From: a virus
Lineage: Duplodnaviria; Heunggongvirae; Uroviricota; Caudoviricetes
Virus record (IMG/VR): IMGVR_UViG_2698536366_000007
Length of the DNA stretch: 11,875 nucleotides
Reading direction: 5' to 3' (one strand)
Each line of letters begins with the position of its first letter. The first letter of the stretch is position 1. Made by a program: the position numbers and the translations under genes. Below the pieces are notes generated by a model, which was given only the letters and a program-made list of their open reading frames with translations, was not told the origin of the DNA and searched no databases. Below are positions 1 to 11,875 of this stretch, piece after piece.

Positions 1-51
1 CTGCTTAAAAAAAGAACAAATGGTAGTGTCCGCTATTGCCAGTACACCTCA
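1..51 (+). mobile_element. IS600 (IS3 family) terminal 51 bp including the inverted repeat; the element body lies upstream of the window
   Basis: Reverse complement of 1-51 matches 8686-8736, the end of the complete IS600 copy, and ends in CCTCA; bases 6-8 TAA correspond to the orfB stop. Confidence 0.8.
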
Positions 52-250
52 TCCATCACCGAAAAAAATTGGCTTTTACACCATTGGCGATAAAAGCATT
101 TACCTGTATGACCTACGCCGCATGGATGAAATCATGGAGGCTCTTGATAATCGTTCGTCGATGGATTGGTGTGTTGCTGTTCATGATATGAATGCAGGGT
201 TTGATGAAAAGATTTTGTTCCCCTCATCAGTTGAAAGCACTGCGGGTTAA
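52..250 (+). pseudogene. 3' remnant of a phage gene truncated by the upstream IS600 (about 65 C-terminal codons, stop at 248-250)
   Basis: The open frame runs straight out of the IS600 end, so the ATG at 20 listed in the ORF track lies inside IS sequence; the downstream translation looks protein-like. Family not recognised. Confidence 0.4.
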
Positions 251-260
251 GGAGTAACAC

Positions 261-428
261 ATGACCACTATTACCAAAGAACGTATTGAATTGTTCATTA
301 AAAACCCGCTTGAAAACGGGCTTACCCGTGGTGAACAAATGGAACTGGCACGGATTGCGCTGGCATCGCTGGAAGCAGAGCCGGTTGTGTTCTGGTTTGA
401 AAAATATCAAGAAGGGGCTACGGCATGA
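261..428 (+). CDS. hypothetical small phage protein (55 aa)
   Basis: ATG at 261 preceded by AGGAG at 250-254; stop TGA 426-428 overlaps the next start (ATGA); shares the MTT(I/F)T(K/R)E N-terminus and the IAL-SL-AEP motif with the following ORF. Confidence 0.5.
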
Positions 429-769
429 CGACTTTTACCAGAGAGCAGTTAATAGCTCACGCAGAGGAGACTATTGAAGCACAGAGACTGTGCATACCGG
501 GCACAATCGACCATGACATCATCCGCACATATAAGATGGATATTGCTGTTCTGGAAATCGCACTGGTATCGCTGGCAGCAGAGCCAGCCGGTAAATTGCA
601 TGAATACAAACCAGTGGGATATCAGCGTCTGGTCGATGAGTTAACCATGCTGGTAAAGCAGTTAACCTGGCAACTGAGGAAAGCGAAGCCAGACTGCAAA
701 TTACCGGATAAGGCGATGAGTTATCTGGAGCGGAACGGACTGATAAGCGTGGAGGATATTTTACGATGA
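425..769 (+). CDS. hypothetical phage protein (114 aa), paralogous to the preceding 55-aa ORF
   Basis: ORF track; ATGA overlap with the upstream ORF and with the downstream 27-aa ORF; shared motifs with the 261-428 product. Confidence 0.55.
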
Positions 770-849
770 CCTGGCCTGAAGCATTAACAACGGTAGGAAT
801 TGCGATGGCGGTGGCGCTGGTGGTGTATTCGATTTGCCGCTGGGGATAA
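766..849 (+). CDS. small hydrophobic peptide (27 aa, [27 protein letters not shown]), predicted single transmembrane helix
   Basis: ATG 766 overlaps the upstream stop (ATGA); strong SD GGAGGA at 751-756 with 9-nt spacing; stop TAA 847-849. Below the ORF-track size cutoff. Confidence 0.45.
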
Positions 850-1003
850 AAACGGTTTGCGGGAAAAGGAGAGTTAAGTAGAATTGCAGCGGGTGCTTGA
901 GGCTATCTGTCTCAGGCATGAACACCAAAAGGCAGATAGAGAAAAGCCCCAGTTAACATTACGCGTCCGGCAAGACGCTTAACATTAATCTGAGGCTCAA
1001 TCT

Positions 1004-1216
1004 ATGAACGGCAAATCTAGGTTAGCCTCTTACGTGCCGAAAGGCAAGGAGAAGCAGGCTATGAAGCAGCAAAAGGCGATGTTAATCGCCCTGATCGTCA
1101 TCTGTTTAACCGTCATAGTGACGGCACTGGTAACGAGGAAAGACCTCTGCGAGGTACGAATTCGAACCGGCCAGACGGAGGTCGCTGTCTTCACAGCTTA
1201 CGAACCTGAGGAGTAA
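1004..1216 (+). CDS. hokD: Hok/Gef family type I toxin with in-frame mok-like N-terminal extension; core hok reading frame 1061-1216 (51 aa)
   Basis: Core translation MKQQKAMLIALIVICLTVIVTALVTRKDLCEVRIRTGQTEVAVFTAYEPEE matches, from memory, the HokD/RelF toxin; the leader carries hok-mRNA-like elements (GCTTGAGGC at 896-904; AGCCTCTTAC...GCAAGGAGAAG immediately before the ATG). Confidence 0.8.
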   Translation: MNGKSRLASYVPKGKEKQAMKQQKAMLIALIVICLTVIVTALVTRKDLCEVRIRTGQTEVAVFTAYEPEE

Positions 1217-1286
1217 GAGACCAGGCGGGGGAGAAATCCCTCGCCACCTCTGATGGGTCAGGCATCCTCAATGCACCCACACTTAA

Positions 1287-1311
1287 CCCGCTTCGGCGGG
1301 TTTTTGTTTTT
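1287..1311 (+). terminator. rho-independent terminator of the hok transcript
   Basis: Stem CCCGC / GCGGG with UUCG tetraloop (1287-1300) followed by TTTTTGTTTTT. Confidence 0.65.
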
Positions 1312-1436
1312 ATTTTCAACGCGTTTGAAGTTTTAGATGGTGCCGGAATAGAATCAAAAATACTTAAGTAGCGCGCAGGGAGAAGAGGGATGGACCCCGA
1401 ACAGGGGAGTGCTATTTATCTGGAAGGATTCTGTTG

Positions 1437-1718
1437 ATGAAAATCGAAGAATTACGTGAAATTTTTAGTGAAGATGGCCTCTATACTGTGCGCGTTGAGA
1501 ATGGCGCTATTGTCAGCCACTGCCTTCCAGACTACACAATTCTGATAATTCAGCCGTCTTTGCCAGCAGGCACGGGCGGCGCTCTCACGCATTTAAATCT
1601 GATTGGTACCAGCATCCCCCATGCACTGAAGAACAGGCCGAATGGCTCATTCAGTGTTACCGCAGGCGCGGATGCGAGGTTAAAAAAGCCCTTAGCCTCG
1701 ACTACCGTCACTGGATAA
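1437..1718 (+). CDS. hypothetical small protein, probably frameshifted (possible pseudogene); the protein-like C-terminus continues in another frame to 1792
   Basis: ATG 1437 (track start 1434 is TTG) with SD GGAAGGA at 1423-1429; downstream of the C5 run at 1616-1620 a different frame stays open to TAA 1790-1792 and reads protein-like, while the annotated frame becomes low-complexity. Confidence 0.4.
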   Translation: MKIEELREIFSEDGLYTVRVENGAIVSHCLPDYTILIIQPSLPAGTGGALTHLNLIGTSIPHALKNRPNGSFSVTAGADARLKKPLASTTVTG

Positions 1719-1793
1719 TCTCCGTCAGGCTCCCTTACTCCGAACGGCCAACGCGTCCGTCCCGCACATTCCAGCAACGGATCTGGAGGTAAT

Positions 1794-2852
1794 GTGCGGG
1801 TATTACTTCGACCTGTTCTGGTACCGGAACTCGGTCTGGTTATCGTTAAGCCAGGCCGTGAATCAATGTCAGCATTCCATAACGGCAGAATACTGGTGGA
1901 GCCGGAACCAAAAAGCATGCGTAATCTGCCGTCCGGGGTCGTTCCTGCCGCTCGCCAGCCGCTGGTGGAAGACAAAACATTGCTGCCGTTTTTCAGTAAC
2001 GCACGGGTGATTCGTGCTGCTGGTGGTGCTGGTGCATTGTCTGACTGGCTGTTGCGCCATATTAAATCCTGCCAGTGGCCACACGGCGATTATCATCACA
2101 GCGAAACCGTCATTCACCGTTATGGTACCGGCGCAATGGTGTTGTGCTGGCACTGCGACAACCAGCTGCGTGACCAGACATCCGAATCACTCGAGCAACT
2201 TGCTCATCAAAACCTGTCAGCATGGATGATTGACGTCATCGGTCACGCAATAAGCGGTACGCAGGAGCGTGAATTATCTCTGGCTGAATTATCCTGGTGG
2301 GCGGTCCGCAATCAGGTGGCGGACGCGCTACCGGAAGCGGTATTACGTCGTTCGCTGGGGTTGCGTGCGGAAAAAATTCGCTCTGTGTACAGTGAAAGCG
2401 ACATCATACCGGGAGAGCAGACAGCCACCAGCATACTGAAGCAGCGCACAAAAAATATTGCGTTACTGCCTCACGTCCACCAGCAACAGAACCCACCACA
2501 GGAAAAGACGGTGGTCAGCATTGCCGTTGATCCGGAGTCACCGGCTCAGTATCTCCAGCGCCAGAAATCACAACGGGAAGAGATGCCTGTATACACGCGC
2601 TGGGTAAAAACGCAGAAATGCATGACGTGTGGCAATCAGGCAGATGATCCGCATCACATCATTGGTCATGGACTGGGAGGGATGGGAACAAAGGCTGATG
2701 ATTTGTTTGTTATTCCGTTATGCCGTAAATGCCGTAACGAACTACATGCCGGAGTAAAAGATTTTGAAGAGAAACACGGCAGTCAGCTGTTGTTGCTGAT
2801 TCGTTTTTTAATGCACGCGAGAAATTCGGGTGTTCTGAAGTGGAAAGCATAA
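1794..2852 (+). CDS. DUF968-like prophage protein with C-terminal HNH/zinc-finger-like Cys/His cluster (YdfU-like)
   Basis: 352-aa ORF; C-terminal CMTCGNQADDPHHIIGHG...CRKCRNELH pattern; GTG start at 1794 after GGAGG (1785-1789); alternative ATG start at 1866 (MSAFHNG...). Confidence 0.75.
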   Translation: MRVLLRPVLVPELGLVIVKPGRESMSAFHNGRILVEPEPKSMRNLPSGVVPAARQPLVEDKTLLPFFSNARVIRAAGGAGALSDWLLRHIKSCQWPHGDYHHSETVIHRYGTGAMVLCWHCDNQLRDQTSESLEQLAHQNLSAWMIDVIGHAISGTQERELSLAELSWWAVRNQVADALPEAVLRRSLGLRAEKIRSVYSESDIIPGEQTATSILKQRTKNIALLPHVHQQQNPPQEKTVVSIAVDPESPAQYLQRQKSQREEMPVYTRWVKTQKCMTCGNQADDPHHIIGHGLGGMGTKADDLFVIPLCRKCRNELHAGVKDFEEKHGSQLLLLIRFLMHARNSGVLKWKA

Positions 2853-3233
2853 ATGACCGAGCGCATAGAATTTGTTTTACCTTACCCGCCGACGGTGAAC
2901 ACTTACTGGCGTCGTCGTGGCAGCACATATTTTGTATCAAAAGCCGGGGAGCGTTATCGCCGGGCAGTGGCGCTTATTGTTCGCCAGCAGCGGCTGAAAT
3001 TAAGCCTGTCCGGAAGGTTGGCAATAAAAATTATTGCAGAACCACCGGATAAGCGCCGCCGTGACCTGGACAATATTCTGAAAGCGCCGCTGGATGCGCT
3101 GACGCATGCGGGGTTGCTAATGGACGATGAGCAGTTTGATGAAATCAATATCGTTCGTGGTCAGCCAGTATCTGGTGGACGTCTGGGGGTGAAGATTTAT
3201 CCCATAATGCTTGAAGGGCAGGTCAAAAAATGA
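2853..3233 (+). CDS. rusA: RusA-like Holliday junction resolvase
   Basis: 126 aa with the RRRDLDN acidic motif and overall similarity to E. coli RusA; ATG immediately follows the upstream stop. Confidence 0.8.
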   Translation: MTERIEFVLPYPPTVNTYWRRRGSTYFVSKAGERYRRAVALIVRQQRLKLSLSGRLAIKIIAEPPDKRRRDLDNILKAPLDALTHAGLLMDDEQFDEINIVRGQPVSGGRLGVKIYPIMLEGQVKK

Positions 3234-4051
3234 AACTGGAAGATTTACCGAAATACTACTCCCCAAAATCCCCCGGCCTGACTGATGCATCGGCCTCAAC
3301 GTCGAAAGATGCGCTGAGTATCACTGATGTGATGGCCGCGCAGGGCATGACACAGAATCGGGCTGAGATGGGGGTTTCTGCGTTCCTTGGGAAAATGGGC
3401 ATTAGTATGAATGACAGAGAGCGGGCAACAGAATTGCTGACAGAATATGCACTCAGTCGGTGTGATCGCGTGGCGGCGTTAAGAAAACTCCCGGCAGAAA
3501 TAAAACCGGCAGTGATGCGTATTATGGCTTCGTATGCGTTTGAAGATTATGCCCGTAGCGCGGCGAGCAAAAAACAGTGCCCCTGCTGTCACGGAAAAAA
3601 ATTTATTGAAAGCGAGGTTTTTACAAACAAGATCCAGTATCCGGATGGTAAGCCGCCGGTATGGGCAAAGTGTACGAAAGGTGTGTATCCGTCTTACTGG
3701 GAAGAATGGAAAAAAGTCAGGGAGGTGGTAAAAGTTGCCTGTCCGGAGTGTGGCGGAAAGGGTGAGGTTTCCACCGCCTGTAAGGATTGCCGTGGGCGTG
3801 GTGTCGCCATTCATCGTGAAGAGTCGGTAAAACGTGGTATGCCTGTTATCAGAGACTGCCAGCGTTGTGGTGGTCGTGGCTATGAAAGACTACCATCAAC
3901 GGAGGCATTTAATGCTATATGCGAGGTGACAAACCAGATAACACGCGCGTCATGGGAAAAAACAGTTAAGAAATTTTATGATGCGCTGGTGACCCGGTTT
4001 GATATTGAAGAAGCATGGGCTGAGCGGCAGTTAAAAAAGGTAACTAGGTAA
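3230..4051 (+). CDS. Q: late-gene antitermination protein Q (phage 82/Qin type, zinc-binding)
   Basis: 273 aa; several CxxC pairs (CPCCHGKK, CPECGGKG, CKDCRGRG, CQRCGGRG); ATGA overlap with rusA; immediately followed by a PR'-like promoter and terminator. Confidence 0.8.
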   Translation: MKLEDLPKYYSPKSPGLTDASASTSKDALSITDVMAAQGMTQNRAEMGVSAFLGKMGISMNDRERATELLTEYALSRCDRVAALRKLPAEIKPAVMRIMASYAFEDYARSAASKKQCPCCHGKKFIESEVFTNKIQYPDGKPPVWAKCTKGVYPSYWEEWKKVREVVKVACPECGGKGEVSTACKDCRGRGVAIHREESVKRGMPVIRDCQRCGGRGYERLPSTEAFNAICEVTNQITRASWEKTVKKFYDALVTRFDIEEAWAERQLKKVTR

Positions 4052-4056
4052 CAAGG

Positions 4057-4084
4057 TTGATTTTTCCGGAATCTGTGGTAAATT
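4057..4084 (+). promoter_or_regulatory. candidate late promoter PR' (with qut region) downstream of Q
   Basis: -35 TTGATT (4057-4062), 16-bp spacer, extended -10 TGgTAAATT (4076-4084). Confidence 0.5.
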
Positions 4085-4133
4085 CGTCATAACGATGGGC
4101 GTTTTATGCCTGACGTTAGAAGAGTTTCTACAA

Positions 4134-4155
4134 CCCGCCGCCGAGCGGGTTTTTT
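4134..4155 (+). terminator. tR'-like intrinsic terminator
   Basis: CCCGC-cgccga-GCGGG stem-loop followed by TTTTTT, about 50 nt downstream of the PR' -10. Confidence 0.7.
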
Positions 4156-4275
4156 ATGACTGAAATCGCGTCAGTACAGTAAACGCGCTGGTGGCGGTGA
4201 ATACCTGTCTTTCAGCTTGCTGGCTTTTTCGACAAGAGTTATTGGTGTGTCACGTTAACCGGAAAAGGAAAAGAC

Positions 4276-4473
4276 ATGCTAAAACAGCAGGATATGACAG
4301 AAACCGCCAGAGTGGTGTTTAATGAATTAAGCGTTACCGAACCGGCGACAGTCGGGGAGATAGCGCAGAATACTTACCTTTCACGCGAACGCTGCCAGTT
4401 AATACTGACCCAGCTGGTTATGGCGGGTCTGGCAGACTATCAGTTCGGTTGTTACAGACGCCTTCCGCAGTGA
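4276..4473 (+). CDS. small hypothetical protein (65 aa), possible winged-helix DNA-binding protein
   Basis: ATG 4276 preceded by AAGGAAAAG; helix-turn-helix-like segment VGEIAQNTYLSRERCQLILTQL. Confidence 0.5.
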   Translation: MLKQQDMTETARVVFNELSVTEPATVGEIAQNTYLSRERCQLILTQLVMAGLADYQFGCYRRLPQ

Positions 4474-4484
4474 AGGCTTTTTTA
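4460..4484 (+). terminator. intrinsic terminator overlapping the stop of the 65-aa ORF
   Basis: Stem GCCTTC / GAAGGC with 6-nt loop followed by TTTTTTAT. Confidence 0.55.
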
Positions 4485-4500
4485 TTTGTGGTAAATGGGC

Positions 4501-4531
4501 GGCTGGTGGGTGTTAGGGGCACCCACCAGCC
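4501..4531. repeat. perfect 12-bp inverted repeat (GGCTGGTGGGTG ...7 nt... CACCCACCAGCC)
   Basis: Exact reverse-complement arms read directly from the sequence, between the 65-aa ORF and the methyltransferase. Confidence 0.8.
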
Positions 4532-4623
4532 ATCTGCTCATGCGTTGGGTTCACAAGCAAACCTCAGGCCCACTGCTTTGCGCAAAAGCAGAATGAGCCT
4601 ATCAGAGACAGGCTTAATGATCC

Positions 4624-5682
4624 ATGCTTAATACTGTAAAAATATCCAGTTGTGAGTTAATCAACGCCGACTGCCTGGAATTTATCCGGTCGTTACCCGA
4701 AAATTCTGTTGACCTGATAGTCACGGACCCGCCGTACTTTAAAGTGAAGCCTGAGGGCTGGGATAACCAGTGGAAGGGCGACGATGATTACCTGAAGTGG
4801 CTGGACCAGTGTCTGGCGCAGTTCTGGCGGGTGCTGAAACCTGCCGGAAGTCTTTACCTGTTCTGTGGTCATCGCCTGGCATCTGATATCGAAATCATGA
4901 TGCGTGAACGCTTCAGTGTGCTGAACCATATTATCTGGGCGAAGCCGTCCGGACGCTGGAACGGATGCAACAAGGAAAGCCTGCGGGCGTATTTCCCCGC
5001 CACAGAGCGCATTCTGTTCGCGGAACATTATCAGGGGCCGTATCGTCCGAAAGATGCCGGGTATGCGGCGAAGGGCAGTGCACTGAAACAGCATGTGATG
5101 GCCCCGCTGATTTCTTACTTTCGTGATGCGCGAGCTGCCCTGGGGATAACGGCAAAACAGATTGCAGATGCCACAGGAAAGAAAAACATGGTGTCGCACT
5201 GGTTCAGTGCCGGTCAGTGGCAGTTGCCGAATGAAAGCGATTATCTGAAATTACAGGCGCTGTTTGCCCGGGTGGCAGAAGAGAAGCATCGGCGTGGTGA
5301 ACTGGAAAAGCTCCACCACCAGCTGGTGGATACGTATACCTCACTGAACCGGCAGTATGCGGAGCTGCTGAGTGAATATAAACATCTGCGGCGGTATTTT
5401 GGCGTGACGGTGCAGGTGCCGTATACCGATGTGTGGACGCATAAACCGGTGCAGTTCTATCCCGGGAAACATCCGTGCGAAAAACCGGCAGAAATGCTGC
5501 AGCAGATAATCAGCGCTAGCAGTCGTCCGGGTGACCTGATTGCAGATTTTTTCATGGGGTTGGGTTCGACAGTGAAAGCGGCACTGGCGCTCGGGCGTCG
5601 TGCAATTGGCGTTGAGCTGGAGACTGAACGTTTTGAGCAGACGGTTCGGGAAGTACAGGATTTAGTCAGCCAGAACGGATGA
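4624..5682 (+). CDS. DNA methyltransferase, beta-class amino-MTase (N6-adenine or N4-cytosine), phage-borne and apparently orphan
   Basis: 352 aa; N-terminal DPPY motif (VDLIVTDPPY) and C-terminal FxGxG AdoMet motif (FFMGLGST); no restriction endonuclease partner seen in the window. Confidence 0.85.
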   Translation: MLNTVKISSCELINADCLEFIRSLPENSVDLIVTDPPYFKVKPEGWDNQWKGDDDYLKWLDQCLAQFWRVLKPAGSLYLFCGHRLASDIEIMMRERFSVLNHIIWAKPSGRWNGCNKESLRAYFPATERILFAEHYQGPYRPKDAGYAAKGSALKQHVMAPLISYFRDARAALGITAKQIADATGKKNMVSHWFSAGQWQLPNESDYLKLQALFARVAEEKHRRGELEKLHHQLVDTYTSLNRQYAELLSEYKHLRRYFGVTVQVPYTDVWTHKPVQFYPGKHPCEKPAEMLQQIISASSRPGDLIADFFMGLGSTVKAALALGRRAIGVELETERFEQTVREVQDLVSQNG

Positions 5683-5722
5683 TATTGAAGAATTAATTAC
5701 GCGTCGTTATTATGCGGCTCCC

Positions 5723-5798
5723 GGCCCTTTAGCTCAGTGGTGAGAGCGAGCGACTCATAATCGCCAGGTCGCTGGTTCAAATCCAGCAAGGGCCACCA
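5723..5798 (+). tRNA. ileZ: tRNA-Ile (anticodon CAU, ileX-like minor isoleucine tRNA), copy A
   Basis: Cloverleaf by eye: acceptor GGCCCTT/AAGGGCC, anticodon loop CTCATAA, T-arm GCTGG-TTCAAAT-CCAGC, encoded CCA; close to E. coli ileX. Confidence 0.85.
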
Positions 5799-5805
5799 TC
5801 ACATA

Positions 5806-5882
5806 CCGCCATTAGCTCATCAGGAAAGAGCGCCAGCCTTCGAAGCTGGCTGCGCGGGGTTCAAGTCCCCGATGGCGGTCCA
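5806..5882 (+). tRNA. argN: tRNA-Arg (anticodon UCG), copy A
   Basis: Acceptor CCGCCAT/ATGGCGG, anticodon stem CCAGC/GCTGG with loop CTTCGAA, T-arm CGGGG-TTCAAGT-CCCCG, encoded CCA. Confidence 0.75.
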
Positions 5883-5895
5883 TTATCTGCATCAT

Positions 5896-5972
5896 GCGTT
5901 GTTAGCTCAGCCGGACAGAGCAATTGCCTTCTAAGCAATCGGTCACTGGTTCGAATCCAGTACAACGCGCCA
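5896..5972 (+). tRNA. argO: tRNA-Arg (anticodon UCU), copy A
   Basis: Acceptor GCGTTGT/ACAACGC, anticodon stem ATTGC/GCAAT with loop CTTCTAA, T-arm ACTGG-TTCGAAT-CCAGT, encoded CCA. Confidence 0.85.
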
Positions 5973-5986
5973 CACTTATTTTCCCT

Positions 5987-6012
5987 GGCTCGCTTTTGCG
6001 GGCCTTTTTTTT
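5987..6012 (+). terminator. candidate intrinsic terminator after tRNA cluster copy A
   Basis: Imperfect GC stem (GGCtCGC / GCGGGCC) followed by a T8 run. Confidence 0.45.
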
Positions 6013-6416
6013 AAATGTCTCACAATTCAGACGGTTGACAGTTGTCTGTTTTGCGGGGAGTTTGTTAAAAGAAACTGGCATGGTGAATCCCCCTGTGCGG
6101 AGGGGCAATCAGCGAGTAGGTATATGGGATAATCGCGGATTCAGGTGCTGGTACTGAATTCACCGGGAGGCACCCGGCATCATGCAATGGCACATAGCGC
6201 CACTCTCCAGCCCTCTCCGGAGGGGCTTTTCTGTGCCGGATACATCACAGTTTCTGGAACCTTAGGTACTACAGTATCAGTCAGGGTGCTATATTTTCAG
6301 ATGTGATGAAAGCCTGTCAGCAGGCAGGGCGTATCGGAAATGACCCAGTAGAGAAAACGTTGACTCAGATACCGGTGCTGAGTTACCGGGAAACCGGCAT
6401 CACATGACCGCTATCC
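6011..6416 (+). repeat. conserved non-coding element X, copy A (core 6011-6227 shared by all three copies; 6228-6416 shared with copy B only)
   Basis: Near-identical to 8281-8685 and, for the core, to 10923-11130; no convincing ORF; contains TTGACA at 6035-6040 and two GC hairpins sharing CGGAGGGG. Confidence 0.7.
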
Positions 6417-6814
6417 TGAGGTGTACTGGCAATAGCGGACACTACCATTTGTTCTTTTTTTAAGCAGCCATCTGATGATATTTTTCCCTGAAGGCTGCCG
6501 GGGAGATATTCCCCAGACGAGAGTGACGACGCTGACGATTGTAGAAAATCTCAATGTATTCCCGTATTACTGAGATGGCTTCATCCCGGTTATTAAAACG
6601 ATAGTGGCTCAGGCTCTCATTTTTCAGCGTTCCCCAGAAGCTTTCCATCGGAGCGTTGTCGTAACAGTTACCTTTACGCGACATTGATGTTTTCAGACCA
6701 GACTGCTCCTGTATGACCCGGTAATCGTATGCGCAGTACTGTGAACCTCGATCAGAGTGGTGGATTAGCCCGGCAGGTGGGCGCTGGCTCCTGAGCGCCA
6801 TAAACAGGGCTTTA
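6417..6814 (-). mobile_element. IS600 fragment (398 bp from the orfB end, including the terminal inverted repeat)
   Basis: Matches 8686-8083 of the complete copy, then switches abruptly into Q coding sequence at 6815. Confidence 0.85.
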
Positions 6815-7232
6815 TCCAGTATCCGGATGGTAAGCCGCCGGTATGGGCAAAGTGTACGAAAGGTGTGTATCCGTCTTACTGGGAAGAATGGAAAAAAGTC
6901 AGGGAGGTGGTAAAAGTTGCCTGTCCGGAGTGTGGCGGAAAGGGTGAGGTTTCCACCGCCTGTAAGGATTGCCGTGGGCGTGGTGTCGCCATTCATCGTG
7001 AAGAGTCGGTAAAACGTGGTATGCCTGTTATCAGAGACTGCCAGCGTTGTGGTGGTCGTGGCTATGAAAGACTACCATCAACGGAGGCATTTAATGCTAT
7101 ATGCGAGGTGACAAACCAGATAACACGCGCGTCATGGGAAAAAACAGTTAAGAAATTCTATGATGCGCTGGTGACTCGGTTTGATATTGAAGAAGCATGG
7201 GCTGAGCGGCAGTTAAAAAAGGTAACTAGGTT
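6815..7232 (+). pseudogene. 3' fragment of a second Q antiterminator gene (about 139 codons), stop codon lost through a small deletion
   Basis: About 99% identical to 3634-4051, with SNPs and a 6-bp deletion that removes the stop; fused to the IS600 fragment. Confidence 0.8.
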
Positions 7233-7258
7233 GATTTTTCCGGAATCTGTGGTAAATT
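7231..7258 (+). promoter_or_regulatory. second copy of the PR'-like promoter
   Basis: Same -35 TTGATT and extended -10 TGgTAAATT as at 4057-4084. Confidence 0.45.
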
Positions 7259-7307
7259 CGTCATAACTATGGGCGTTTTATGCCTGACGTTAGAAGAGTT
7301 TCTACAA

Positions 7308-7329
7308 CCCGCCGCCGAGCGGGTTTTTT
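7308..7329 (+). terminator. second copy of the tR'-like terminator
   Basis: Same CCCGC-cgccga-GCGGG stem plus T-run as at 4134-4155. Confidence 0.65.
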
Positions 7330-7368
7330 ATTGCGGAATTAATTACGGACCGTTATTATTCTGCTCCC

Positions 7369-7444
7369 GGCCCTTTAGCTCAGTGGTGAGAGCGAGCGAC
7401 TCATAATCGCCAGGTCGCTGGTTCAAATCCAGCAAGGGCCACCA
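7369..7444 (+). tRNA. ileZ: tRNA-Ile (CAU), copy B
   Basis: Identical to 5723-5798. Confidence 0.85.
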
Positions 7445-7451
7445 TCACAAA

Positions 7452-7531
7452 CCGCCATTAGCTTATCAGGAAGAGCAGACGACACGATAACAGGGTTGTT
7501 GGTGCGGGGGCGGGTCCCCGATGGCGGTCCA
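7452..7531 (+). pseudogene. degenerate tRNA-Arg-like sequence (probable tRNA pseudogene), copy B
   Basis: Acceptor and D arms match the copy-A tRNA-Arg(UCG), but the anticodon arm is replaced by unrelated sequence and the T-loop lacks TTCRA. Confidence 0.6.
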
Positions 7532-7544
7532 TTATCGGTATTCA

Positions 7545-7621
7545 GCGTTGTTAGCTCAGCCGGACAGAGCAATTGCCTTCTAAGCAATCGGTCACTGGTT
7601 CGAATCCAGTACAGCGCGCCA
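7545..7621 (+). tRNA. argO: tRNA-Arg (UCU), copy B
   Basis: Same as 5896-5972 with one acceptor-stem change (A to G, giving a G-U pair). Confidence 0.8.
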
Positions 7622-7731
7622 TATTCATTCTTCCAGATTCCTTCCGGCAGAGCCTTATACTGAAATATACCTGGCTCAGGATATTGTTGAAAATATTTTA
7701 TGTTTGTCAAAAATAAAAGTTCTGTTAAGTA

Positions 7732-8085
7732 TTGATTGAGTGTTTGTTATACGGTCTAATGGTTTTTTCAGCATTAAATATTTATCATTCATATGGTGTG
7801 GGTAGAGTGAATATTGATGAGGCGTCGGGGTGTTTCATCCTTAGGCAGCGTATTGATATAGTCAATGCAGCACGAGCAAAGGCCTTCAGCCGTTTGACAG
7901 TTTTGTTCTGTACTCCTGATCGTCTTTCGGGAAGAGACGTTATTATTCTGAATAGTGATGCTATACAGAGGGTTTGCGATGAGTTCATGGTTGCTAATTC
8001 AGAATTATTTGCTCTTGTTCAGGAGTACAACAGAATAGCCAGGACCTGTGGTATGGATGAACTTCGGATTACTCATCTGGGGTAG
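7732..8085 (+). CDS. hypothetical cargo protein (up to 117 aa) in AT-rich DNA, copy 1; start codon uncertain
   Basis: Longest ORF in the post-tRNA slot; track start 7732 is TTG, first in-frame ATG at 7759, in-frame GTGs at 7798 and 7807; no strong SD; no family recognised. Confidence 0.45.
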   Translation: MIECLLYGLMVFSALNIYHSYGVGRVNIDEASGCFILRQRIDIVNAARAKAFSRLTVLFCTPDRLSGRDVIILNSDAIQRVCDEFMVANSELFALVQEYNRIARTCGMDELRITHLG

Positions 8086-8280
8086 ATACATATCTGGATT
8101 ATCACCTGTTACGGTAAAAAGTGATTGCTTACTGTTTTTGTGAATGGCATTGCAGCAGCCGGATAATGTCAGTGCTGGCTGACGGTGTGCTGGTGGCGGG
8201 TGTGGTGGTTGTTGCTTTCCCGTTGCTGAAAAAGAAAACGCCAGACTGTTAGCCGGGTATCAGTTAGCGGGAGAAATTTT

Positions 8281-8685
8281 TAAATACTTCACAATTCAGG
8301 CGGTTGACTGTTGTCTGGTTTGCGGGGAGTTTGTTAAAAGAAACTGGCATGGTGAATCCCCCTGTGCGGAGGGGCAATCAGCGAGTAGGTATATGGGATA
8401 ATCGCGGATTCAGGTGCTGGTACTGAATTCACCGGGAGGCACCCGGCATCATGCAATGGCACATAGCGCCACTCTCCAGCCCTCTCCGGAGGGGCTTTTC
8501 TGTGCCGGATACATCACAGTTTCTGGAACCTTAGGTACTACAGTATCAGTCAGGGTGCTATATTTTCAGATGTGATGAAAGCCTGTCAGCAGGCAGGGCG
8601 TATCGGAAATGACCCAGTAGAGAAAACGTTGACTCAGATACCGGTGCTGAGTTACCGGGAAACCGGCATCACATGACCGCTATCC
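8281..8685 (+). repeat. conserved non-coding element X, copy B
   Basis: Matches 6011-6416 (SNPs in the first 40 bp, identical thereafter up to the IS600 junction). Confidence 0.7.
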
Positions 8686-8728
8686 TGAGGTGTACTGGCA
8701 ATAGCGGACACTACCATTTGTTCTTTTT

Positions 8729-9547
8729 TTAAGCAGCCATCTGATGATATTTTTCCCTGAAGGCTGCCGGGGAGATATTCCCCAGACGAGAGTGACGACG
8801 CTGACGATTGTAGAAAATCTCAATGTATTCCCGTATTACTGAGATGGCTTCATCCCGGTTATTAAAACGATAGTGGCTCAGGCTCTCATTTTTCAGCGTT
8901 CCCCAGAAGCTTTCCATCGGAGCGTTGTCGTAACAGTTACCTTTACGCGACATTGATGTTTTCAGACCAGACTGCTCCTGTATGACCCGGTAATCGTATG
9001 CGCAGTACTGTGAACCTCGATCAGAGTGGTGGATTAGCCCGGCAGGTGGGCGCTGGCTCCTGAGCGCCATAAACAGGGCTTTACCTGTCAGCTCTTTTGT
9101 CATGCGCTCTCCCATGGCGTAGCCGACAATTTCGCACGTATAAACATCTTTGATGCCAGCGAGGTACAACCATCCCTCCTGTGTGGCAACATACGTCAGG
9201 TCCGCCACCCAGACCTGATTTGGTGCTGTAGGAGCGAACGTCTGGTTCAGCAGATTTGGCGCAACTGGCAGATTGTGGTTCGAGTTCGTAGTCGCTCTGA
9301 ACTTGCGTTTCTGCTTACAGCGTAGCCTTAGCTCCTTACGAAGACGTGCCAGTCGGTCACGACCAACGATGATGCCATTCTCTGCCAGCTCCGTCTGGAG
9401 CCGCCGGGTTCCATATGTTTCGCGAGTGCGGATATGTGCCACCTTAATCTCCAGTTTTAGCCGCTCATCACTTTGTTTTCTGTCTGAGGGTTCATGCTGT
9501 ACCCAGTTGTAATAACCGCTCCTGGATACACCAAATACCTGACACAT
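8729..9547 (-). CDS. IS600 transposase OrfB (DDE integrase domain), expressed as an OrfAB fusion by -1 frameshifting
   Basis: 272 aa from the first ATG; IS3-family OrfB sequence; the frame is open upstream into the orfA 3' end. Confidence 0.9.
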   Translation of the reverse strand: MCQVFGVSRSGYYNWVQHEPSDRKQSDERLKLEIKVAHIRTRETYGTRRLQTELAENGIIVGRDRLARLRKELRLRCKQKRKFRATTNSNHNLPVAPNLLNQTFAPTAPNQVWVADLTYVATQEGWLYLAGIKDVYTCEIVGYAMGERMTKELTGKALFMALRSQRPPAGLIHHSDRGSQYCAYDYRVIQEQSGLKTSMSRKGNCYDNAPMESFWGTLKNESLSHYRFNNRDEAISVIREYIEIFYNRQRRHSRLGNISPAAFREKYHQMAA

Positions 9548-9582
9548 CGCTTCAATGGGAAATTGTTGTCGCCATTGTTCGA

Positions 9583-9885
9583 TTAACGCGTATTTTTCAG
9601 CGACTCCTGTGCAAAATACGCTGTTGCTTTTTTTAATATATCTCGCTCAAGGCGAGCTTCATTTAACGCCTTACGCAGTTGCAGAATTTCAGATTCCAGT
9701 TCAGCCACCGTGCGGGAACCAGGAGTACCGAGCCCTTTTCTGGCGGCGGTAACCCATTGTCCTAAAGTGCCTTCAGGAAGAGATAATCGGGAAGCGCCTT
9801 CACTGATCGAAAGTTGATTTTCAAGAACCGTTCTGACAGCTTCGGCTTTGAACTCTTTAGAGTAACGTTGGGTTTTTCTGCTCAT
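9583..9885 (-). CDS. IS600 transposase OrfA (helix-turn-helix / leucine zipper)
   Basis: 100 aa; A AAA AAG slippery heptamer on the coding strand (plus-strand T7 run at 9628-9634) near its 3' end. Confidence 0.9.
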   Translation of the reverse strand: MSRKTQRYSKEFKAEAVRTVLENQLSISEGASRLSLPEGTLGQWVTAARKGLGTPGSRTVAELESEILQLRKALNEARLERDILKKATAYFAQESLKNTR

Positions 9886-10001
9886 TATTAGCTCCTTCTG
9901 ATGCCATTCTATTTCAGGAAGGAGTGTCCGTTAAACTCAGGCTACCTCAAGGGTGGTTTTTTATTGCGGAATTAATTACGGACCGTTATTATTCTGCTCC
10001 C

Positions 10002-10077
10002 GGCCCTTTAGCTCAGTGGTGAGAGCGAGCGACTCATAATCGCCAGGTCGCTGGTTCAAATCCAGCAAGGGCCACCA
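10002..10077 (+). tRNA. ileZ: tRNA-Ile (CAU), copy C
   Basis: Identical to 7369-7444. Confidence 0.85.
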
Positions 10078-10084
10078 TCACAAA

Positions 10085-10164
10085 CCGCCATTAGCTTATC
10101 AGGAAGAGCAGACGACACGATAACAGGGTTGTTGGTGCGGGGGCGGGTCCCCGATGGCGGTCCA
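10085..10164 (+). pseudogene. degenerate tRNA-Arg-like sequence, copy C
   Basis: Identical to 7452-7531. Confidence 0.6.
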
Positions 10165-10177
10165 TTATCGGTATTCA

Positions 10178-10254
10178 GCGTTGTTAGCTCAGCCGGACAG
10201 AGCAATTGCCTTCTAAGCAATCGGTCACTGGTTCGAATCCAGTACAGCGCGCCA
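10178..10254 (+). tRNA. argO: tRNA-Arg (UCU), copy C
   Basis: Identical to 7545-7621. Confidence 0.8.
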
Positions 10255-10364
10255 TATTCATTCTTCCAGATTCCTTCCGGCAGAGCCTTATACTGAAATA
10301 TACCTGGCTCAGGATATTGTTGAAAATATTTTATGTTTGTCAAAAATAAAAGTTCTGTTAAGTA

Positions 10365-10718
10365 TTGATTGAGTGTTTGTTATACGGTCTAATGGTTTTT
10401 TCAGCATTAAATATTTATCATTCATATGGTGTGGGTAGAGTGAATATTGATGAGGCGTCGGGGTGTTTCATCCTTAGGCAGCGTATTGATATAGTCAATG
10501 CAGCACGAGCAAAGGCCTTCAGCCGTTTGACAGTTTTGTTCTGTACTCCTGATCGTCTTTCGGGAAGAGACGTTATTATTCTGAATAGTGATGCTATACA
10601 GAGGGTTTGCGATGAGTTCATGGTTGCTAATTCAGAATTATTTGCTCTTGTTCAGGAGTACAACAGAATAGCCAGGACCTGTGGTATGGATGAACTTCGG
10701 ATTACTCATCTGGGGTAG
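10365..10718 (+). CDS. hypothetical cargo protein (up to 117 aa), copy 2
   Basis: Identical to 7732-8085. Confidence 0.45.
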   Translation: MIECLLYGLMVFSALNIYHSYGVGRVNIDEASGCFILRQRIDIVNAARAKAFSRLTVLFCTPDRLSGRDVIILNSDAIQRVCDEFMVANSELFALVQEYNRIARTCGMDELRITHLG

Positions 10719-10922
10719 ATACATATCTGGATTATCACCTGTTACGGTAAAAAGTGATTGCTTACTGTTTTTGTGAATGGCATTGCAGCAGCCGGATAAT
10801 GTCAGTGCTGGCTGACGGTGTGCTGGTGGCGGGTGTGGTGGTTGTTGCTTTCCCGTTGCTGAAAAAGAAAACGCCAGACTGTTAGCCGGGTATCAGTTAG
10901 CGGGAGAAATTTTTAAATACTT

Positions 10923-11130
10923 CACAATTCAGGCGGTTGACTGTTGTCTGGTTTGCGGGGAGTTTGTTAAAAGAAACTGGCATGGTGAATCCCCCTGTGC
11001 GGAGGGGCAATCAGCGAGTAGGTATATGGGATAATCGCGGATTCAGGTGCTGGTACTGAATTCACCGGGAGGCACCCGGCACCATGCAATGGCACATAGC
11101 GCCACTCTCCAGCCCCTCTCCGGAGGGGCT
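10923..11130 (+). repeat. conserved non-coding element X, copy C (core only)
   Basis: Matches the 6011-6227 core with two differences, then diverges into unique AT-rich sequence. Confidence 0.7.
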
Positions 11131-11162
11131 GTTTATATTGATTTTGTCAGATGTGAGTAAAC

Positions 11163-11196
11163 TCCTTATGGACTTTGTTGTTTTAGTCCATAAGGA
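11163..11196. terminator. perfect 12-bp stem hairpin (TCCTTATGGACT ...10 nt... AGTCCATAAGGA), probable terminator for the minus-strand ORF
   Basis: Exact inverted repeat overlapping the stop of the 11166-11501 minus-strand ORF; U-tract is weak on both strands. Confidence 0.5.
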
Positions 11197-11501
11197 CATA
11201 TTTGCAGAGTGCAACGGTTATTAAAGCATTCATTCAATACGTTATCTGTATTTGTAGGGCATTCCTGGCTATTTTTGATTGAATTCCAGAATGTTTTATT
11301 GAATGGTACTACGTTGTAAATGGTTACAGGTAGCACTTTGTTATTGAGCATGATGCCTGTGTGAGTCAGTGTAAATATACTTTCAGGAGGTAAGAAAGCA
11401 TCCGATTGATACCAGATTATTAATTTTATTTTACTCCATATGACTGAAAAAGATATTCCGCATGATGGCTGGATAACTGTATCAATCACAATCCACTTCA
11501 T
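11166..11501 (-). CDS. hypothetical protein (111 aa) in an AT-rich island, oriented against late transcription; moron-like
   Basis: ATG with SD AAGGA at 6-nt spacing on the minus strand; hairpin at its 3' end; AT-rich codon usage distinct from the phage backbone; no family recognised. Confidence 0.5.
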
Positions 11502-11761
11502 TTAGTTTCCTTGTTTATGCCTTGCTGGTGATGTTCTGAAAAGTATAAATGATATTTTTGAATGTAAACCATAGAGCAGAATTATTTTTCTGATGTTGTT
11601 TATTGTTTATTTAAATGCAGGGTGGTTTATATCTCGTCTTGTAGTTTATCCATGCATATCTGCTTGATAATCAGGTTTTTATTTAAGGTATGGTTTTGTG
11701 TTTTTTCTGTATTACATGTCAGGTATTTTAAAGAATTATTTTTCAGATGGTGGAAAGAACC

Positions 11762-11875
11762 ATGGCATTTAAACACTATGATGTTGTCAGGGCGGCGCCG
11801 CCGTCAGATCTTGCGGAAAAGCTGACACATAAACTGAAAGAGGGCTGGCAGCCGTTTGGTAGTCCGGTGGCCATA
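11762..11875 (+). CDS. 5' end of a conserved lambdoid late-region protein (possibly DUF1737-like), continuing beyond the window
   Basis: ATG 11762 (MAFKHYDVVRAAPPSDLAEKLTHKLKEGWQPFGSPVAI...) with a purine-rich stretch upstream; GC content returns to backbone level; family assignment is from memory. Confidence 0.55.
   Translation, partial: MAFKHYDVVRAAPPSDLAEKLTHKLKEGWQPFGSPVAI

Follow-up and report, generated by a model that had tools for sequence, protein, structure and literature searches.

An internal break of an IS600 element joined directly to codon 135 of a prophage antiterminator gene, at 6814/6815 (junction J1), forms a scar without function; because its breakpoint falls exactly on the edge of a repeat, an assembly error is a likelier origin than a genuine deletion. 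The junction stands in a stretch of 11,875 nt, called the window here. We give a probability of roughly 0.55 to the reading, drawn from sequence comparison, that J1 was made by contig or scaffold stitching or by gap closure, and not by the cell. The initial annotation had favored a deletion scar and had itself named an assembly artefact as the result that would overturn that view; this artefact is now the leading explanation. Under either reading, artefact or recombination, J1 is ordinary.

By its matches, the window belongs to Shigella sonnei and is a mosaic of alternating pieces from two distinct prophage remnants, P1 and P2. The ompW-adjacent remnant P1 occupies the left half and has the gene order hok/sok, DUF968, RusA, Q, methylase, three tRNAs, STnc100 and IS600. 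Remnant P2 is ordered RusA′, Q′ (284 aa), two tRNAs, orf108/117, DUF3927, STnc100, IraM and DUF1737. In complete S. sonnei genomes, the remnants have equal orientation and lie 670 kb (CP104423) or 780 kb (53G) apart. Positions 1–6814 match the P1 locus of S. sonnei chromosomes at 99.97% identity, including the IS600 insertion site, where the reference chromosomes have a complete IS600, then TCC, then P1 DNA. Positions 6815–8499 match S. sonnei P2 loci at 99.7–99.8% identity, with the differences lying outside the Q′ part in most loci, and P2 sequence of still higher identity closes the window (Table 1). The order of segments is a zigzag from P1 to P2 to P1 to P2: P1 runs to nt 398 of IS600, P2 follows from Q′ codon 135, P1 is regained inside a 130-nt identical block, and after a whole IS600 and the letters AGGGT the sequence is again P2, from just upstream of its tRNAs. 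The window is also bounded by IS600 copies, starting 51 nt inside one and ending 13 nt before another, which truncates P2 in the reference genomes; P2 contigs from SKESA-style S. sonnei drafts break off at positions equivalent to 11845–11886 of the window.

Table 1. Features of the window, with coordinates, strand and the evidence for each
Feature	Coordinates	Strand	Evidence
Final 51 nt, at the IRR end, of another IS600 copy; orientation opposite to that of both copies to its right	1..51	+	Reverse complement of 6417-6467; same IS600 at the site in S. sonnei loci L013-L020
Intact Q antiterminator of P1, 273 aa	3230..4051	+	PF03589 Antiterm, E=1.6e-53; S. sonnei chromosomes have an identical protein in this context
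P1 Q and downstream terminator, near-identical to P2 Q′	3633..4157	+	Identical over 3633-3975; left edge is the position matched by the junction
P1 sequence 3′ of the tRNAs (F′1), STnc100 at 6049-6238, ending at the IS600 insertion site	6008..6416	+	Site and TCC target duplication in L013; empty site in strain 53G (L017)
IS600 stub, IRR-proximal 398 nt, C-terminal 117 aa of OrfB	6417..6814	-	100% identical to 8686-9083; rve, rve_2 and rve_3 domains in the ORF
Junction J1, IS600 nt 398 to Q codon 135	6814..6815	.	Printed junction, k-mer comparison
Chimeric ORF, 178 aa	6460..6996	-	61 aa of antisense Q′ and 117 aa of OrfB C-terminus
Q′ fragment (codons 135-284, stop 7264-7266) and terminator, P2 allele	6815..7331	+	Match to S. 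sonnei P2 loci
8-bp deletion site	7227..7228	+	Comparison with intact Q; the 284-aa Q′ is the standard P2 product
P2 tRNA block, first copy: tRNA-Met(CAT) 7369-7444, degenerate middle tRNA, tRNA-Arg(TCT) 7545-7621, orf117 7732-8085	7322..8318	+	Identical to 9955-10951
130-nt block identical in P1 and P2, inside STnc100 copy 2	8319..8448	+	P2 markers up to 8318, P1 markers from 8449
P1-type F′ sequence up to the IS600 insertion site	8449..8685	+	Second copy of 6180-6416
Complete IS600, 1264 bp; orfA 9583-9885, orfB 8729-9547	8686..9949	-	Ends, domains, RefSeq annotation
Junction J2: exact IS600 IRL end, AGGGT, restart of the P2 tRNA block	9950..9954	.	Printed junction, k-mer comparison
P2 tRNA block, second copy, then native P2 order	9955..11875	+	99.9-100% identical to S. 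sonnei P2 loci
Within the second P2 copy: tRNAs 10002-10254, orf117 10365-10718, STnc100 10951-11140	9955..11875	+	
Within the second P2 copy: IraM-like gene (DUF1737 start ~11761)	11166..11501	-	

A k-mer comparison (k=21–127) with 20 S. sonnei loci found only two novel junctions in the window, J1 and J2, where J2 is the IS600 left end, AGGGT and the tRNA block at 9949–9955. As one of only two novel junctions, J1 is a true discontinuity and no chance resemblance. Self-comparison, proposed in the initial annotation as a dot-plot, shows the IS600 stub and the copy of the Q 3′ part and, together with the printed junction, bears out the direct IS600–Q join first noticed at 6814/6815, near Q codon 135.

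The two sides of J1 were located to the base. Positions 6417–6814 equal the first 398 nt of the complete IS600 at 8686–9949, counted from its orfB-proximal end (IRR), at 100% identity; the element is cut internally, and its IRL-proximal 866 nt are missing. The Q 3′ part begins at 6815, and 6814 aligns with 3632, where codon 135 of the intact Q starts. The sides overlap by one base at most, the A at 6814, which is common to IS600 and P1 Q; P2 Q′ carries G there. A crossover within a shared stretch was not found at J1, as the IS600 interior has no more than 1 nt in common with Q. P1 Q and P2 Q′ show 35–36 differences up to and including 3632, and none from 3633 until 3976, and the Q-side breakpoint (6815 = 3633) is the exact left edge of this identity block. 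A random breakpoint in the 855-nt gene would fall on that base with a chance of ~1/1000. All P2-like E. coli Q alleles compared have this edge, again with 3632 as the final differing base, and the edge therefore predates S. sonnei and is independent of J1. Gene conversion from a truncated fragment into P1 Q was considered as the source of the edge and ruled out, because unrelated E. coli P2-like Q alleles have it too. Coincidence with a repeat edge is found on the Q side (6815), at the 8319–8448 switch and at the IS600 IRL end (9949), and is absent at IS600 nt 398, where 54 examined IS600 copies have no polymorphism, truncation or foreign insertion.

The Q fragment to the right of J1 is, base for base, the Q′ allele of P2, including its SNPs and its stop-removing deletion. 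The initial annotation was right to derive it from a diverged second Q region of another prophage. Its differences from the intact copy are three SNPs (7158, 7176 and 7268) and one deletion that removes the TAA stop, much as first described, except that the deletion measures 8 bp and not 6. It corresponds to one unit of an imperfect tandem repeat, AGGTAACT/AGGTAACA, and its loss shifts the frame and adds 11 residues (LIFPESVVNSS). Since these differences belong to the normal P2 allele, they are not decay after truncation. Homology of the Q region extends to 7331 (= 4157), in agreement with the end first placed at 7330. In the Antiterm family (PF03589; cut-off 26.7), the intact Q scores 179 bits and the fragment 110 bits (E=8.5e-32). 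The fragment nevertheless starts at codon 135 straight after IS600 sequence, and its first possible start is a GTG at 6865. It is not a full-length expressible Q in a RusA–Q–late-region context, while the 284-aa Q′ is complete in the reference P2 loci. Because its first 134 codons are absent, the fragment is non-functional, whether J1 is real or artificial.

The chimeric minus-strand ORF across J1, called an artefact from the start, is a meaningless by-product of the join, and its exact product is absent from the gene index and from a collection of 15 billion proteins. A 133-aa Q′ ‘protein’ on record in S. sonnei drafts seemed to support J1 and was rejected, as its contigs are without IS600: these 2.4-kb draft contigs start at 6854–6865 and run straight on to IraM. 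Other partial Q′ calls of 102–137 aa imply starts up to 6958, and none has IS600. We infer that the draft contig starts fit the position of the first Q/Q′ SNP (7158) minus a long k-mer.

The full IS600 has the TGAGG inverted repeat, with ends TGAGGTGTACTGG... and TGAGGTAGCCTGAG..., and two overlapping ORFs, a 100-aa orfA with PF01527 and a 272-aa orfB with PF13276 and PF00665/rve_2/rve_3. Where the terminal 50 nt match those of the window, the RefSeq label is ‘IS3-like element IS600 family transposase, programmed frameshift’. In the reference locus L013, TCC/TCC flanks the same insertion, and strain 53G has the empty site GCTATCCTTCC. This 3-bp target-site duplication is absent from both window copies, the stub having lost its far end and the full copy being followed by AGGGT, which means that neither copy, as it now lies, is a simple insertion. 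The size, inverted ends, orfA/orfB pair with HTH_Tnp_1 and rve, and the TCC duplication at the reference site are those of IS600 in Shigella. The stub differs in its truncation at nt 398, unique among the copies seen and without another IS inserted there, and in a partner sequence from a locus ~700 kb away; partial IS600 copies as such are common in S. sonnei genomes.

Beyond J1, the switch from P2 to P1 lies within 8319–8448 and creates no novel k-mers even at k=127. It is the only switch with the shared stretch expected of a homologous crossover, and the draft contig L012 ends at 8317, right at the 130-nt block. The earlier suggestion of recombination between related prophages thus holds for this F′ block, but not for J1, which has no homology. 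At J2, the sequence restarts at 9955 (= 7322), 10 nt before the right edge of Q/Q′ homology at 7331. Two blocks that are single-copy in the references occur twice in the window, tRNA–orf117 (~1 kb) and F′–IS600 (765 nt). AGGGT was compared with the IRL flanks of other IS600 copies, and it matches none of the 25 distinct flanks present in the fetched loci.

The two junctions were sought elsewhere. Megablast of 6300–7400 and 9900–10005 found J1 and J2 in 0 of 5,426 E. coli genomes, where partial matches to the J2 region were dismissed as chance matches. Neither junction is present in the ~29 S. sonnei chromosome contigs read, all of which carry this Q and have a simple P1-locus structure. Exact pattern searches found no J1 in GTDB representative genomes, IMG/VR or JGI metagenome contigs, and no J2 in GTDB representative genomes or IMG/VR. 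A 32-aa ORF across J2 is absent from the protein collection by exact look-up.

The anatomy of the window, the source of each of its segments and the fit of breakpoints to repeat edges are observed, whereas the artificial nature of the join is what we infer. A contig growing leftwards from P2 would have to stop at the first base where Q and Q′ are identical, which would explain why the piece to the right of J1 starts at that base. The next switch, at 8319–8448, lies in a repeat that short reads cannot resolve. The IS600-bounded sequence resembles a short-read contig, yet it holds a full multi-copy IS600. A literal path from P1 on the left to P2 on the right would call for a loss of ~700 kb of chromosome, or for at least 3–4 independent rare events. 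The likeness to repeat-edge mis-joins in draft assemblies comprises breakpoints at or next to exact-repeat edges, a switch in an unresolvable block, and ends at a multi-copy IS; the window differs from them in that IS600 nt 398 is at no known repeat edge and in its duplicated single-copy blocks. De Bruijn-graph assemblers make no overlap-free joins, and consequently an artificial J1 presupposes scaffolding, gap closure or manual work.

Several observations speak against a mis-join. IS600 nt 398 is no repeat edge in any of the 54 copies, and the 5-nt filler AGGGT is left without explanation. Two reference-single-copy blocks are doubled, truncated IS600 remnants occur in real S. sonnei genomes, and the species is noted for highly active IS elements and for frequent rearrangement (PMC7373316, PMC8072062). 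Duplication of single-copy blocks is not normal for scaffolders, but is produced by real duplications.

The alternative that J1 arose in the cell is plausible but less likely. Illegitimate end-joining or a replication template switch, with 0–1 nt of microhomology, would have fused the P1 IS600 interior to P2 Q′, as part of a P1/P2 rearrangement in several steps, private to this isolate, in which the tRNA–STnc100 block was duplicated as well. The junction is clean and of high quality, its flanks are 99.97–100% identical to references without indels, and the duplicated blocks are perfect copies, as after recent duplication. At J2 the IS600 stops precisely at its IRL terminus, as is typical where a transposase has made the end; homologous crossing-over within 8319–8448 would be an ordinary event, and reference genomes contain truncated IS600 copies. 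In S. sonnei, IS600 is highly active (PMC7373316). For the stx region of S. dysenteriae 1, a segment of a defective prophage flanked by IS600 is documented to undergo tandem amplification and deletion, according to the citing statement in PMC7819885. Like that amplification, the window has a head-to-tail repeat of lambdoid late-region sequence whose joint is occupied by IS600 (7322–9954 and 9955 onwards); it differs in that J1 is inside IS600 without homology and J2 has a 5-nt filler. McDonough and Butterton reportedly described in 1999, for the S. dysenteriae 1 stx region, a homologous exchange between two complete, directly repeated IS600 copies. The cellular origin must also account for a breakpoint that meets a pre-existing identity-block edge to the base, for which we conceive no biological process, and it requires three or more novel events and some viable route by which loci ~700 kb apart could meet; a simple P1–P2 deletion would remove about 670–780 kb of chromosome. 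The join is absent from every other genome and collection searched, and the window is IS600-bounded, like an unresolved short-read contig. A single MMBIR-like event, with serial template switching from P1 to P2 to P1 to P2, could also yield the structure, but we regard this as improbable; to our knowledge, complex rearrangements of this kind are rarely documented in bacteria. Such an event would comprise one switch with at most 1 nt of microhomology, one homologous switch and one with a 5-nt filler, and would place three copies of a rare-codon tRNA and STnc100 sRNA module within 6 kb of remnant.

We consider it very improbable that P1 at an earlier time duplicated in tandem the stretch from the 3′ part of Q up to IS600 nt 398, and that gene conversion from P2 later overwrote the interior of the second copy, with the Q and F′ blocks as homology arms. 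The layout (F′–IS600 stub)(Q′ 3′ part and tRNA block)(F′–IS600) is that of a head-to-tail duplication junction, with a downstream element joined to an upstream one, and P1/P2 homology flanks the converted segment on both sides (6815–7331 and 8319–8448). Chance alone would still have to place the duplication junction exactly at 3632/3633, J2 and the third tRNA block would be left without explanation, and all 29 S. sonnei contigs read show the simple P1 structure. The adjacent deletion first proposed, in which IS600 transposase attacks a target close by and everything from the IS end to Q is lost, is hardly credible. IS600 is present and active in the species, and its sequence is at the junction. 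An adjacent deletion, however, leaves the IS whole, so that its terminal inverted repeat borders the new joint, and J1 is not such a product because no IS end is there: the joint is 398 nt inside the element, without a TG...CA end motif on either side. The order at the joint (downstream F′–IS600, then upstream Q) is of the duplication or inter-locus type and not that of a deletion within a colinear prophage. Surrogate-end transposition, with a pseudo-IRR at the Q′ breakpoint, and integration of a circle were both rejected, as there is no TG...CA end and no 3-bp duplication and the same coincidence would be needed.

With a mis-join as the preferred reading of J1, the structure has little biological weight: no working antiterminator can come from the fragment, the 178-aa ORF is spurious, and there is no sign of a new system. 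A real join would add another private IS-associated rearrangement to those for which the species is already known, with local triplication of phage tRNA and STnc100 genes. For IS-rich Shigella genomes, prophage-remnant junctions should not be read as deletion scars, nor chimeric ORFs annotated, until reads confirm them, and this caution applies most where a breakpoint coincides with a repeat edge.

Both the intact Q and the fragment match the QuuQ-type lambdoid antiterminators, with their DnaJ-like CxxCxGxG zinc-finger region, and the gene order RusA–Q–tRNAs–STnc100 is that of many E. coli lambdoid prophages. The fragment differs in that codons 1–134 and any promoter context are missing, which makes it a pseudogene piece. 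The RusA variant of the window, with G at 3160, is an allele widespread among E. coli prophages.

The join flagged at 6814/6815 (J1) fuses segments of two Shigella sonnei prophages: P1, which adjoins ompW and carries the intact antiterminator gene Q, and P2, a second prophage remnant that carries another allele, Q′. Look-ups of identical proteins assigned the window to S. sonnei. Positions 1-6814 are 99.97% identical to P1 in S. sonnei chromosomes (e.g. CP104423 and strain 53G, HE616528), a match that takes in the left flanking IS600 and an identical site of IS600 insertion at 6416/6417. P1 references carry a complete IS600 there, with TCC duplicated on its two sides; 53G has the empty site. 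Positions 6815-8499 and 9955-11875 are 99.7-100% identical to P2, whose order is RusA′ (124 aa), Q′ (284 aa), tRNAs, orf108, DUF3927, IraM, a truncated DUF1737 gene and another IS600. In reference chromosomes, the two prophages share one orientation and are separated by between 670 kb (CP104423) and 780 kb (53G). The initial annotation had placed the IS600/Q join correctly, position 6814 being the equivalent of 3632, where Q codon 135 starts. It had also rightly taken the 178-aa minus-strand ORF for an artefact: 61 residues of antisense Q run into the last 117 residues of IS600 OrfB, an accident of J1. The Q′ fragment and its join are a scar without function and give no hint of a new system.

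Anatomy of the window, from its self-comparison, position-by-position difference lists and printed junctions (IRR, orfB-proximal end of IS600; IRL, opposite end)
Feature	Position	Remarks
IS600 end (orfB-proximal, IRR)	1-51	inverted relative to the other IS600 copies
76-aa ORF	20-250	begins in the terminal 51 nt of IS600, extends into phage DNA
Lambdoid prophage segment	52-6416
sok/hok	891-1216	within 52-6416
Rfam sok	891-1066	112 bits
70-aa ORF	1004-1216
DUF968 gene, then RusA		within 52-6416
Intact Q antiterminator	3230-4051	273 aa; PF03589
N6/N4 DNA methylase	4624-5682
Three tRNAs (P1 cluster)	5723-5972	tRNA-Met(CAT), tRNA-Arg(TCG), tRNA-Arg(TCT)
STnc100 sRNA	6049-6238
IS600 stub	6417-6814	first 398 nt from IRR end; 100% identity to 8686-9083
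178-aa ORF	6460-6996	minus strand
Q gene 3′ part and its terminator	6815-7331
tRNA-orf117-STnc100 block	7322-8499
P2-type tRNA cluster	7369-7621
Degenerate remnant of middle tRNA	7445-7544
STnc100 sRNA	8318-8507
Complete IS600	8686-9949	1264 bp
AGGGT	9950-9954
Second copy of 7322-8499, then IraM-like gene and DUF1737 gene start	9955-11134 (repeat part)
P2-type tRNA cluster	10002-10254
STnc100 sRNA	10951-11140

Compared with 20 S. sonnei reference loci, the window contains novel k-mers in only two stretches at every k from 21 to 127, namely J1 and a second join at 9949-9955 (J2). At J2, the complete IS600 finishes exactly at its IRL end; AGGGT comes next, and P2 then restarts at the equivalent of 7322. 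The intervening AGGGT is neither a 3-bp target duplication nor native P2 sequence. Between the joins, the last P2 marker is at 8318 and the first P1 marker at 8449, with the switch inside a 130-nt block identical in both prophages. Two novel joins and one switch within a shared block therefore make the window a P1-P2-P1-P2 zigzag: P1 up to IS600 nt 398 (counted from IRR), P2 between Q′ codon 135 and the shared block, P1 again from there through an entire IS600 and P2 onward from just upstream of its tRNAs.

Three SNPs (7158, 7176 and 7268), the scattered SNPs already noticed, set the Q fragment apart from the intact Q region, as does one deletion that indeed removes the stop codon; the size of the deletion is 8 bp, not the 6 bp first reported. 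The deletion (at 7227-7228, equivalent to 4046-4053 of the intact copy) arose by slippage in an imperfect tandem repeat, AGGTAACT/AGGTAACA, with the loss of a single unit; the resulting frameshift appends LIFPESVVNSS. The 284-aa Q′ of S. sonnei P2 is exactly the allele with this deletion and these SNPs, which bears out the proposal that the fragment derives from a diverged second Q of another prophage. Its differences from the intact Q are the normal P2 allele. The 284-aa form, standard in S. sonnei P2, is also found in E. coli H8, indicating that both Q lengths circulate as apparently intact genes. Among all compared alleles, P1-like and P2-like, the central part of Q (3633-3855) shows one difference at most; the N-terminal half falls into two allelic types (about 35 differences) and the 3′ end into another two. 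The P1 Q of S. sonnei is thus a mosaic in which a 5′ half of the type seen in L043 (an E. coli P1-like prophage) precedes a P2-type 3′ end.

When a transposase makes an adjacent deletion, the IS stays complete and its terminal repeat sits at the new joint. J1 instead lies 398 nt within IS600, with the remaining 866 nt absent, an IS-end motif missing on both sides and at most one base shared by the partners; the IS-mediated adjacent deletion initially proposed was consequently rejected. A deletion within one colinear prophage was also discarded: having a late-region element run into a gene that lies upstream of it is the order left by a duplication or by an inter-locus join.

We favor an assembly product over a join made in the cell, with a probability of about 0.55. 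Up to 3632, itself a variant site, 35 differences separate P1 Q from P2 Q′, and none occurs across 3633-3975; the Q′ fragment begins at 6815, the equivalent of 3633 and the first base of this identity block. Every P2-like Q allele taken from an unrelated E. coli prophage likewise has its last difference at 3632. The edge therefore belongs to the gene family and is older than and independent of J1, and the chance of a breakpoint at exactly this edge is roughly one in a thousand. A contig growing leftwards from the P2 tRNA block would have to halt at the 3633-equivalent base, because the next base would be ambiguous (A in P1, G in P2). The switch from P2 to P1 sits in a repeat that no short-read k-mer resolves, and one draft contig from another isolate terminates at 8317, at the 130-nt block; the P2 restart at 9955 is 10 nt ahead of the right edge of Q/Q′ homology. 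The window starts 51 nt into one IS600 and ends, at 11875, 13 nt short of the IS600 that truncates P2 in references, so that it resembles a whole short-read contig or scaffold; draft contigs of the P2 region from other isolates stop at the equivalent of 11845-11886. Short reads could not legitimately traverse the complete multi-copy IS inside it. Five IS families, IS600 among them, have expanded in Shigella, and every Shigella reference chromosome holds 229-348 IS insertions in total (PMC7373316). Read literally, the path from P1-left to P2-right implies the loss of about 700 kb of chromosome or at least three to four independent rare events. Going by the E. coli map between ompW and cmoAB, the lost interval must include essential genes.

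A real, private illegitimate recombination at J1 is a tentative alternative, and other models are less probable. We know of no graph assembler that makes overlap-free joins, so an artefact presupposes an extra step: scaffolding, gap closing or manual work. None of the 54 IS600 copies examined has a repeat edge at nt 398, and there is no match to AGGGT among the 25 IS600 flanks seen. The window holds two copies of each of two blocks that references have only once, which fits a real duplication more naturally; truncated IS600 copies exist in real genomes, and S. sonnei has highly active IS elements and frequent rearrangement (PMC7373316, PMC8072062). Against recombination, we can conceive of no biological process that would place a non-homologous break exactly at the edge of an identity block.

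Neither J1 nor J2 matched any of 5,426 complete E. coli genomes, and both were absent from the 29 S. sonnei contigs with this Q that were read, where P1 has its simple structure throughout (29/29). Searches of GTDB representatives and IMG/VR found neither join, nor did JGI metagenome contigs yield J1; the chimeric ORFs had no entry in the protein collection searched. A 133-aa Q′-fragment product on record in S. sonnei drafts was considered and rejected as independent support for J1. It occurs on 2.4 kb contigs that start 40-50 nt to the right of J1, lack IS600 and continue directly to IraM like standard P2, and its protein cluster holds many further partial lengths (102-137 aa). We infer that it results from contigs breaking off within the Q/Q′ repeat when the genome is a standard one.

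The stx region of S. dysenteriae 1 is reportedly amplified by homologous exchange between complete IS600 copies, which J1 does not fit. The window's head-to-tail repeat, with IS600 at the repeat joint, nevertheless resembles the IS600-flanked amplification of that region (McDonough and Butterton 1999, cited in PMC7819885).

The components of the window are standard: the IS600 copies (IS3 family), a QuuQ-type Q with PF03589 and a DnaJ-like zinc-finger region, phage tRNAs, STnc100 and a hok/sok-type toxin-antitoxin, whose 70-aa ORF matches the position of the HOK_GEF gene called in reference loci. S. sonnei reference loci have a gene call for the same 76-aa ORF, which is probably one more spurious frame created at an IS boundary. 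At position 3160 (RusA codon 103), the window has G instead of C, its sole consistent difference from 10 S. sonnei P1 loci; G is the base of P2 RusA′ and of L043, and could be an ancestral allele, a P2 micro-conversion or P1/P2 cross-talk during assembly or polishing. The three STnc100 copies (RF02076; 122-132 bits against a gathering score of 47) each sit downstream of one tRNA cluster, and related E. coli prophages (L001, from H8, and L002) also contain diverged local repeats of STnc100. The two P2-type tRNA clusters are 88% identical to the P1 cluster and have lost the middle tRNA; the H8 counterpart of the P1 tRNA-Met(CAT) is annotated in RefSeq as tRNA-Ile.
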